A stretch of DNA of 64,000 nucleotides from Pelagomonas calceolata (GCA_918797485.1 CAKKNE010000003.1:2232001-2296000); one strand, 5' to 3'. Counted from the stretch's first letter, positions 60,001 to 63,000 are shown. Translations and numbers: made by a program. The notes: generated from the sequence alone by a model not told the origin.

Positions 60001-63000
60001 AGCCGACGTCGATCACGAGCAGCGTCTCGCCGCCCGCGACTGGGTCGTAGATGCGCACTTCTTCATCACAACTACAAGCAAGCCGCGGCGCGCCCGTCGC
60101 CGGGTCCGCGAAGAACGCCAGCGCAGTCACATAGTCACCGACGTCAATCACGAGCAACACATCGCCAGTCTCCGCGTCCCACACGCGAATCGTCTTATCA
60201 TACGACCCGGTCGCGACCCGCAATGCACCTGTCGCCGGATCCACAAAGGTCACCAGGGCCATCACAGGATCAGAGTGTCCTTCGGGCTCCGCCTCGATCG
60301 CCGCGCCGCCCGCCGCCGGGTTCCAGACTCGAACGTCACGCGATCCACTCACGAGCCGCGGCTCGCCCGTTGCCGGGTCAACGAAGGCTGTCAAAGCCTC
60401 TACATCACGTGTGTGTCCCTCGAGCACGACCAGCGCCTCGCCGCCCGCGACCGGGTCGAAGACGCGCACCTTCTTATCTTTTGATCCGCTCGCGAGTCGC
60501 AGCGCTCCCGTTTTCAGGTCCTCGAATGCGACCAGTGCCTTAACTTCCGAGCCCACTTCGAGCACGAGCAGCGCGTCGCCGCCAGAAACCGCGTCGAAGA
60601 CGCGCACGTTCCCATCGTTAGAGCCGCACGCGAGCCTCGGCGTACTCGCCGCTGGTTCCTTGAAGACCGCCAGTGTCTCCACTTCAGATCCAATATCTAG
60701 CACGAGCAGCGCCTCGCCGCCCGCGACCGGATCGAAGACGTGCACCTTCTCTCCCGACGCGCACGCGAGCCGCGGCGCGCCCGTCGCCGTGTCCGCGAAG
60801 ACTGCCAGCTTTGCAGAGTCCACTTCGAGCACGAGCAGCGCCTCACCGCCCGCAATAGGGTCAAAGATCTTGCCAGAGCTAGTCACAAGCCGCGGCGCGC
60901 CCGTCGCCGGGTCCGTGAAGACCGCCAGACTCCAAGCCGACGTGTCGATCACAAGCAGCGCCTCGCCGCCCGCCACCGGGTCAACTATGAACAACCTCTT
61001 GTAAGAACCACAAGCCAAACGCGGCTCGCCCGTCACCGGGTCTTTGAAGACCGCCAGCGCGGAAGCACGCATATCAATCACAACCAGCGCCGCGCCACCC
61101 GCGACCGGATCATAGACGAACACCTTCTTGTCGTATTCATACGCGCAAGCAACCCGCGGCTCGCCCGTCGCCGGATCCACGAACGTCGCCAAGCACTCAG
61201 CCTGAGTCTCAATCAGACACCGCTCCGCCCCACCCGCCGCCGTCAGGCCCATCGGTCGTACGGCCGAGAGAGGCAGCTTGCTTGCGACGCGTCTCAGATC
61301 CTCGGCCAGGCGTTGCGCGGCAAGAGACGACTCCGCATCGGCGCGCGGCACAAGCCGCTGCCACAACTGCTCTACGAGAGGCAATCCCCGTGACAGCAGG
61401 TTCCGCGACAACACCAAGGAGTCGGACAGCAGCAACGTGTCCTGACCCTGAAGAACGTTCAGGTCCGCCACGAAGGAAACAATGTCGCAGTCGCTCCGCT
61501 TCCGCACGTACGACAGGCTGCAGGCGACCGCGAAGGCCTCGCCCTCAGAACAAGACCGCTTCATGTGGAACAAACACCATCGTAGCGCATAAGCATCCGA
61601 CGCCACGCCGCCCTCGCCCTCCACAAATGAAGCCAGCGCTTCATCCGCGGCCGCGTCGCTCGAGTGCGACTCCGTATCCAAGGCTTCAGCACGAATCGCT
61701 CGAGCACAAGCCCGCGCCAGCCGCCGGTGCGCCGCGTCCCGCGCGACGAAGAACGCGTCCTTCGCAGAGCGCTTGTTGAACGGCGCCTCGCCGGTCAGCC
61801 AGTCCGTCACGGTCTTATGTAACACGCCAATCACCTCGCCCTCGCGCAGCGGGAACAGCAGGGACACGCCGTCACAGACCTTCTTGCACCGCGCCCGATC
61901 CCAGCCGAGCGCCCCACTCGCAGCGTCAATTGTCAACGGCTCCGCAGCAGCGCAGATTAATTCGACGAGCGGCAGCGCATCGCCCCACGAGGCATCGTCA
62001 ACGAATACGCGGCGAAAGTTCTCCGCGTAGATCTCGTCGAGGCCCGCCGGCAGCGCCCCGACGCTCGCAAAGTCGATCTTGCCGCTCGTGGCCTCGAGCT
62101 GGTCTGCGATGAGCCGCGCGTAGAGCATCAGTCCACCGGCCTTCCGTTCGAGCGAAGTGACAGCCGCGTCGAGCGCCGACGAGTTGAGACGCTCGGCAAT
62201 AAACGCCTCCAGCGCGCCCGCCCCAACGCTCGTGCCCTCACACATCTTCGGTAGGGCCAATCGAATCACCTCGTACTGCTCGTGGGCGATGTGCTTGGCA
62301 TCCGCGACGCTCTTTAAATTCAGCTGAACCTCGGCGAGATGTTTTCGGCCGTCGTCGAGGCGCACGCTGACGTTCAAATTCATGTCACGGTAGCCGAGCG
62401 GCGTCGGACTGGCAAACTTGTTTTTTAATTGCGCGATCTCCAGCCCGAGGCCTCCACCGTCCAATTCAGTCAGCACCTTCAGTAGGTCGGCGGCGCTCTC
62501 GAACAGGACCGTCGCGCGGGCTAGATCCCGAAACTTCTCGGGATGTGGCACCCCATTCCTGTCGGTGTACTTGTCCGCGAGCTTCCTTTCTGCGGATCCA
62601 CGCCCTTTCACGCCCGGATCCGACACGTTGCCAGGGAGCGTCTTTAGCGCTTCGACCAAAACTGTCTGCGCCAGTGATGCGTCGGCGTAGAGCTTCTCAA
62701 AGTCGGTCTCGTCTTGTACCAAGTCGAGACGTCGCTCCTTGTACTTCTCGAGCTCGTGAATCCCGGCGACGCCGCGGACCGCCTCGTCGTACGCGCCCTT
62801 TGACCGGCGCAGCGGGTCCTCGAGGTCTGCGAACGTGTCGAGATTCTTCAAGCCCGGGAACTTCGCCTCGACTTCGTGCCGCAGCGACTCCATCGTCACC
62901 TCGAGCTCGACGTGTTCCTTCGCGAGTACCGTCAGGTACGCCCTCACGTCCTGCCGGTTCCGCGCCTCGTCGACGCGCAGCTCCGACGGCGTATAGCCCT

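Follow-up and report, generated by a model that had tools for sequence, protein, structure and literature searches.

A Tas1-like RelA/SpoT domain within helical domain 1 of NLR-like STAND proteins from pelagophytes, diatoms and haptophytes

What does a RelA/SpoT-like domain do inside the nucleotide-binding module of a eukaryotic receptor? The question is raised by a gene in a 64,000-nucleotide stretch of Pelagomonas calceolata DNA (GCA_918797485.1, CAKKNE010000003.1:2232001-2296000; the window), which an earlier note had described as an NLR-like protein whose NACHT motifs are interrupted by synthetase-like sequence. The motifs that it quoted were all found in one stop-free minus-strand frame (Table 1). 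The nearest named proteins are from P. calceolata and are 92% identical across the aligned insert part. The surroundings are ordinary eukaryotic nuclear DNA with GAPDH-like, C2-domain and spliceosomal-GTPase-like frames, recognized by eye, and Pfam was run on 14 frames. A very long, multi-exon-like series of C2-type domains with a coiled-coil tail, again read by eye, lies at window positions 1-12300 on the minus strand.

Table 1. Positions of the gene, its domains and its motifs, counted from the first nucleotide of the window.
Feature	Position	Strand	Basis
Whole gene: single stop-free frame, NACHT (with insert)-WD40-ankyrin, 2234 aa	57089..63793	-	
N-terminus, aa 1-75, begins MGGGVSS	63569..63793	-	Pfam: no match
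NACHT nucleotide-binding domain, aa 76-290, and HD1 helix 1 (DVRAYL)	62924..63568	-	NPHP3_N E 3e-24, NACHT E 2e-6
Insert, N-terminal helical stalk, aa ~295-362	62708..62912	-	three helices in model
Insert, RelA/SpoT-type pyrophosphokinase domain, aa 363-537	62183..62707	-	fold, profile, conservation
Remaining HD1 (GLMLY motif) and winged-helix domain, aa 538-690	61724..62182	-	AAA_lid_TANC1 537-590, weak; STAND structure alignment
WD40 repeats, aa ~860-1475, candidate sensor	59369..61216	-	Pfam
Ankyrin repeats and two Tudor/Agenet-like units	57092..59356	-	Ank_2 E 1e-123
Walker A	63442-63419	-	motif
Walker B	63142-63122	-	motif
Sensor VTSR	63040-63029	-	motif
DVRAYL, HD1 helix 1	62950-62933	-	motif
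PGVKG	62617-62603	-	motif
RDLARAT	62530-62510	-	motif
LKNKF	62428-62414	-	motif
LGYRDMN	62398-62378	-	motif
AEVQL	62335-62321	-	motif
KAGGLMLYA	62143-62117	-	motif
LPAGLDEIY	62053-62027	-	motif

The receptor scaffold contains the elements of a STAND ATPase. The NPHP3_N/NACHT match in Pfam spans aa 92-262, and Walker A, Walker B and the sensor Arg255 are intact. K124 is kept in 21 of 22 relatives and D220, D223, E224 and R255 in all 22. We modelled aa 76-698, which excludes the repeat sensor, with AlphaFold from a 74-row alignment (pLDDT 91, pTM 0.83), since a single-sequence prediction reached a pLDDT of only 41. STAND structures align across residues 1-623 of the model on either side of the insert, which is skipped in alignments of ~300 residues (MalT, Z 17.6; NRC2, 14.8; NLRP9, 14.6; Apaf-1, 13.6), so that both HD1 and the winged helix are present and the insert lies inside the NOD module, as had been proposed. 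We take the LHKTV motif of the winged helix to indicate the TLP1-like NACHT type. As expected for NLR-like proteins, the C-terminus is a repeat sensor, here of WD40 and ankyrin repeats by Pfam. By domain layout the window protein is thus a STAND/NACHT NLR-like protein, which would be predicted to oligomerize and to have an immune output. A Pfam scan finds no effector domain in its N-terminal effector slot and no other effector domain elsewhere in the protein. The MGGGVSS start is presumably a myristoylation-like motif, and MGxxxS-like starts are also seen in three relatives (P0096, P0097 and L003). Pfam also reports 53-BP1_Tudor in two stretches and Agenet at aa 1991-2040. These Tudor/Agenet-like units (57823-57674 and near 57300-57150) sit amid the ankyrin repeats, each within a duplicated block, and a methyl-lysine reader serving as an added sensor is possible.

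The insert comprises ~245 residues (62912-62183) between the first and second helices of HD1. To place it, we examined 143 proteins (141 new identifiers and 2 earlier ones) from the best 150 HMMER hits, with 7 left out; 75 of the 143 match both the nucleotide-binding domain and the downstream helical part. Among these best-hit proteins the gap between the two parts exceeds 200 aa in 14, all 14 with a RelA-like core, falls below 40 aa in 60, none of which has the core, and is intermediate in one. The DVRAYL helix of insert-less relatives passes straight to the 'AAVDLLLEKSEALFLY' helix, ahead of the GLxLY motif, which places the insert in the loop between HD1 helices 1 and 2, because in these relatives the two helices join directly. 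The additional ~250 residues noticed earlier are therefore a true insertion, but one within HD1, not at the border of the nucleotide-binding and helical domains. Downstream of the insert, the Pfam AAA_lid_TANC1 match covers only profile positions 39-92 of 96 (E 0.014, below cut-off).

The claim that the insert is RelA/SpoT-like was borne out by the predicted fold. In the model, aa 363-537 superimpose on five RSH structures with Z of 12.1-13.9 and RMSDs of 3.0-3.9 Å over 139-149 residues, as expected for a SYNTH pyrophosphokinase domain. The best match is SAS2 (Z 13.9, 3.0 Å over 139 residues), followed by RelP (13.8), SAS1 (13.6), Tas1 (12.9, 3.9 Å over 148 residues, 27% identity, the highest of the set) and CapRel (12.1), and Foldseek agrees with these fold matches. 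Searches of the window insert against Pfam, NCBIfam, PHROGs and PADLOC gave zero matches; the insert sequence alone finds at best YwaC at E 0.18, and the relatives score 19.6-24.2 bits against PF04607, for which the cut-off is 27. The comparison proposed for the insert therefore succeeded with the RelP, Tas1 and CapRel structures but not with PF04607, and the assignment depends on profiles and fold. When family profiles were searched against solved structures, Tas1 came first (E 3e-10; 8e-13) and YwaC next (8e-7), with CapRel unmatched at E<=1. In the ESM Atlas the matches were unnamed and mostly eukaryotic clusters (0.96-0.97), together with one cluster that is 34% RelA_SpoT (0.95).

Residue conservation agrees with a synthetase. 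The key residues of the domain are K396, S400, K404, D423, R426, Y468, N472, E488, Q490 and H504. Conservation was scored in 39 representatives below 90% identity, drawn from 57 core-covering rows of the 74 aligned (P0133, a broken copy, was dropped). The catalytic Asp and Glu, the G-loop Tyr and the donor-site lysines of RSH synthetases are all represented: D423 is kept in 37 of 39, E488 in 38, Y468 in 36, K404 in 36 and K396 in 34 (with 4 gaps), and R426 and N472 are kept in 38 each and Q490 in 37. Judged from the spacing of the motifs and not from a computed alignment, D423, Y468, E488, Q490, K404 and K396 correspond to FaRel2 D90, Y128, E145, Q147, K74 and K66, as numbered and assigned roles in PMC11782079. 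The equivalents of FaRel2 R64 and R95 are missing (G394 and T428 stand there), and they are likewise absent from the Tas1 ortholog.

The earlier match to the Syn motifs holds for the RelA/SpoT family but not for canonical SAS motifs. The RxK, DxxGxR, GYxSxH and ExQIRT set that defines canonical (p)ppGpp SAS and long RSH enzymes is replaced; the last three give way to DxxRxT, GYxDxN and ExQL. The Tas1 ortholog L055 has nearly the same motifs (DLARNT, GYSGVN), and Tas1/Apk1 (PDB 6OX6) and the MuF-fused Apk2 (PMC10083569) share the DxxRxT, GYxxxN and ExQ pattern and the catalytic residues. Since these motifs are Tas1-type and non-canonical, we regard (p)ppApp as favoured over ppGpp or tRNA pyrophosphorylation, and so narrow the range of products first suggested. 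A receptor of the same logic that makes (p)ppGpp or pyrophosphorylated tRNA, and would thereby signal or block translation instead of draining ATP, is unlikely in our view. It draws on the structural scores, of which the highest belong to the ppGpp synthetases SAS2 and RelP and to which CapRel adds a Z of 12.1, and on reports in PMC11782079 that substrate choice differs across the RSH family and that the N-terminal helical extension of FaRel2, which the insert parallels, binds tRNA. The sequence profile and tree favour Tas1, however, as does the replacement of GYxSxH and DxxGxR, and the stalk, which is conserved among relatives, is net acidic (11 K/R versus 17 D/E), unlike a basic tRNA patch.

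In a tree of 123 columns all 31 eukaryotic inserts group together (91/88); their sister group consists of the Tas1 ortholog, one phage domain and one polyvalent-protein domain (100/99), followed by ~260-aa gammaproteobacterial proteins, and 9 canonical RSH/SAS are separated outside (100/100). The sister group includes one long-branch Tas1-like row, and the set was built without FaRel, FaRel2, CapRel, PhRel and fungal RelA_SpoT domains. P0102 and P0228 (truncated), L019 and P0253 (near copies), L057, L059 and L060 (very divergent), two redundant long RSHs and P0106 were also left out. Together with the Tas1 profile match (E 8e-13), this sister relationship, read with its one long-branch row, gives the insert the sequence signature of the Apk1/Apk2 group. 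The closest bacterial relatives by HMM score are uncharacterized ~260-aa gammaproteobacterial proteins (E 1e-21), so that membership of the Tas1-like clade need not mean (p)ppApp.

These gammaproteobacterial proteins (L039:5689-7521, L046-L054 and L058) occur in tandem in Photobacterium and have, by eye, seeming signal peptides; none has an NCBIfam or PHROG name, and they are possibly exported nucleotide pyrophosphokinases. The Bordetella phage PHB04 relative (L040:4011-6276) encodes a portal protein, a RelA-like protein, a 69-aa protein and an HD hydrolase in that order, which matches the toxin operon layout described for Apk2 in PMC10083569 and resembles Apk2-Tis1-Aph, with no MuF domain detected. 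We found no intact prokaryotic copy of the HD1-insert architecture among the viral, prokaryote and proteobacterial contigs searched. None of 96 pattern matches in viral contigs was confirmed, and 13 of 401 genomes in a proteobacterial sample match, where, the L038 contig (below) aside, the frames are 257-463 aa long and inspection revealed no NACHT domain (a weak 1100-aa match, L056, lay outside this inspection). PADLOC returned zero hits. One of 48 pattern matches in prokaryote genome contigs was confirmed (L038:1-850, G001:C78), and we rejected it as a true bacterial copy: in this bacterial genome bin a pelagophyte-type NACHT/insert fragment of 93% identity runs mid-frame into alphaproteobacterial genes (mutS-like by eye), so that the contig is most likely chimeric.

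Architecture, predicted fold, conserved catalytic residues, in-frame transcription and membership of one NACHT clade in three algal groups are established for the receptor family; its enzymatic activity, product, gating and immune role we infer as follows. In STAND proteins, nucleotide exchange rotates the NBD-HD1 unit and so shifts it with respect to the winged helix and the sensor. In the window protein, the WD40/ankyrin part would sense a ligand, probably derived from a virus or parasite, and nucleotide exchange would bring about this rotation and probably drive oligomerization. The synthetase borne on HD1 would be uncovered, released or clustered upon this switch. It would then pyrophosphorylate adenine nucleotides, draining ATP in the manner described for Tas1 (PMC8118318), and the infected cell would arrest or die as its ATP is depleted. 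Gating by steric release or oligomerization appears more likely than splitting of the enzyme, because the insert rides on HD1. The N-terminus of the window protein, at only 75 residues, leaves it without an N-terminal effector, which fits the insert as the output. We count in favour of the receptor reading that the family is multicopy with variable tails and relaxed WD40 repeats, as in immune receptors, and against the assignment that Tas1 does not stand out by structural Z, with ppGpp enzymes slightly higher and CapRel only 0.8 lower. Neither the window nor 259 kb of related loci yielded an HD hydrolase gene. Overall, we give roughly even chances to an NLR-like STAND protein in which the Tas1-like RelA/SpoT insert of the HD1 loop is the likely effector and, upon activation of the receptor, likely produces (p)ppApp from ATP. 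The broader proposal, that three algal lineages carry a NOD-embedded Tas1-type toxin, unmasked by pathogen sensing, that converts ATP to (p)ppApp in a suicide defence, is put forward tentatively.

The insert might instead be an integrated sensor or decoy for a nucleotide or a pathogen protein that trips the NACHT switch, with the output coming from the N-terminus or a partner. Its position in HD1 beside the nucleotide pocket would suit an allosteric input, the family includes the catalytically decayed P0106 and P0151, and among the Pelagomonas-type paralogs similar NACHT scaffolds carry either of two divergent insert types. The metal-binding and catalytic residues are nevertheless kept in 37-38 of 39 relatives from three algal groups, separate repeat sensors already exist and Pfam finds no other effector domain in the window protein, so that we consider a sensor or decoy quite improbable. 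We give similarly little weight, and slightly less, to a non-immune switch for stress or cell state, possibly membrane-anchored on a TANC1/NPHP3-like scaffold, that releases a low-level nucleotide messenger. The best Pfam matches are indeed NPHP3_N and a TANC1-type lid/HTH, and transcripts of the family occur in cultures and in sea metatranscriptomes for which infection is not recorded; multiple copies, variable sensor tails and broken copies, on the other hand, fit birth-and-death immune genes, and the nearest characterized relatives are conflict toxins.

The HD1-insert layout occurs in pelagophytes, diatoms and haptophytes. Its members come from Pelagomonas, from Prymnesium parvum and from diatoms of the genus Proboscia. 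An in-frame insert is present in a complete MMETSP transcript ORF (P0007), a second transcriptome-derived protein (P0121), P. calceolata NCBI proteins, three P. parvum proteins and Proboscia alata; a P. inermis fragment contains the insert and helical part. We also found 37 metagenome loci with the insert, several of them broken. The family is multicopy, with variable WD40/ANK tails and broken copies. In a quick tree of the NACHT scaffold without the insert, all 18 insert-bearing rows group apart from 26 insert-less rows (SH-aLRT 98), a grouping consistent with, though not proof of, a single insertion, as the rows were picked by similarity to the query. The architecture is shared by stramenopiles and haptophytes, which implies that it either arose early or moved from one alga to another.

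In raw polyA data from one sample (three runs), all bins of 61900-63300 and both junctions of the insert are covered by a total of 764 reads, none of which contains a joint that skips the insert. The sole joint is that of a divergent paralog, in which 249 letters are replaced. Read identity is mostly 88-99% and at least 99% in 96 of the 764, so that expression is shown for the family and not surely for this copy. Across the whole gene, depth is present in 30 of 30 bins, with first mates mostly on the plus strand and reads largely from paralogs. Compared with six related loci, the insert and the NOD parts have dN/dS values of 0.09-0.28 and the less constrained first WD40 repeats values of 0.41-0.60; the insert-bearing family is under purifying selection. 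GC3 of the insert (0.74-0.82) is similar to that of the remaining gene. Chimeric assembly, like removal of the insert from the mRNA as an intron or mobile element, is thus already largely refuted and has almost no probability left, even though the L038 fusion demonstrates that chimeras occur in these collections, and the splicing and chimerism against which the first description had to be checked are both contradicted by these transcripts, genomes and selection values.

The pairing of RelA/SpoT domains with NLRs is known. RelA_SpoT is an N-terminal effector class of fungal NLRs (Dyrka 2014, PMC4986451; see also the review PMC10197012 and 10.1101/2022.03.16.484565), with 14 T-NACHT cases, 82% of the class, in a survey of Sordariales (10.1101/2024.11.26.625400). 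Fungal and algal proteins are alike in their TLP1-like NACHT, WD40/ANK sensors and RelA/SpoT domain as putative effector. Fungal NLRs, however, have the domain (PF04607) at the N-terminus, where other N-terminal effectors can take its place, whereas in algae it lies inside HD1 and is fixed in one clade; the two sets also differ in host. Bacterial NACHT effectors also include alarmone synthetases, and TM segments are inserted into the NACHT module (Kibby, 10.1101/2022.07.19.500537), but the sections of that work available to us describe no HD1-inserted synthetase. Tas1/Apk1 and Apk2 are (p)ppApp synthetase toxins, delivered or phage-borne, with a Tis1 immunity protein and with or without an Aph hydrolase (PMC10083569), whereas the algal domain, at 27% identity to Tas1, is embedded in a eukaryotic receptor, has no HD hydrolase gene nearby in the loci searched and lacks an associated PAAR or MuF domain by Pfam scan of the window protein. 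CapRel (PDB 7ZTB) and tRNA-targeting toxSAS (PMC11782079, PMC11245113) likewise place a sensor and an RSH toxin domain in one polypeptide, but the pseudo-zinc-finger antitoxin of CapRel was not recognized in the algal receptor, where regulation would fall to the STAND ATPase. Divergent SAS genes have been reported from diatoms, fungi and amoebae (PMC3153485), and RelA/SpoT-like toxin domains from polymorphic toxins and MuF fusions (PMC3482391).

Our literature search, which stopped short of supplements and subscription papers, turned up no description of a synthetase inside the NACHT module or of this algal family. The earlier note knew of no description of the architecture; this stands for the HD1 placement but not for RelA/SpoT effectors on NLRs, and because that pairing is published for fungi and bacteria, what is new is confined to the position within the switch, the membership of the Tas1-like clade and the occurrence in algae. 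Pfam-based surveys of NLRs would miss the family, as the insert falls below Pfam detection and lies inside HD1. If the insert is the effector, NLR effectors need not be solely N-terminal but may sit inside helical domain 1, which bears on how STAND switches are coupled to outputs. Cell-autonomous immunity of picoplankton and bloom-forming algae is, to our knowledge, largely uncharted, and virus-driven algal death shapes ocean carbon flux. The family offers a concrete and cheaply assayable immunity candidate, a receptor with the enzyme built in. If the proposal is true, (p)ppApp chemistry would extend to the eukaryotic cytoplasm; a 2021 review notes ppGpp in eukaryotic cell lines with no known cognate synthetase (PMC8118318).

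The family also varies internally. By motif, the Pelagomonas-type paralogs have two insert types, with 27 proteins of the window type and 7 of the other. When the second type (L002, L004, P0011 and P0013) was compared with window 62707-62183, the catalytic core gave a dS of 1.3 and the flanking NACHT parts 0.33-0.65, a contrast suggesting that the enzyme polymorphism is older and that cassettes were exchanged, or gene conversion took place, around it. P0151 retains the insert flanks and has lost the catalytic core, and in P0106 the catalytic residues have decayed; both could be sensor-only copies or gene-model errors. Prymnesium-type members (P0095 and P0253-P0255) have ~600 additional N-terminal residues and are labelled in UniRef as ubiquitin-like domain proteins. 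The extension of P0095 matches Exo_endo_phos (PF03372, EEP-family), so that the insert is not always the sole candidate effector. In one locus (L026:4814-8170) the WD40 tail is swapped for a C-terminal domain of ~250 aa that is unrelated to it.
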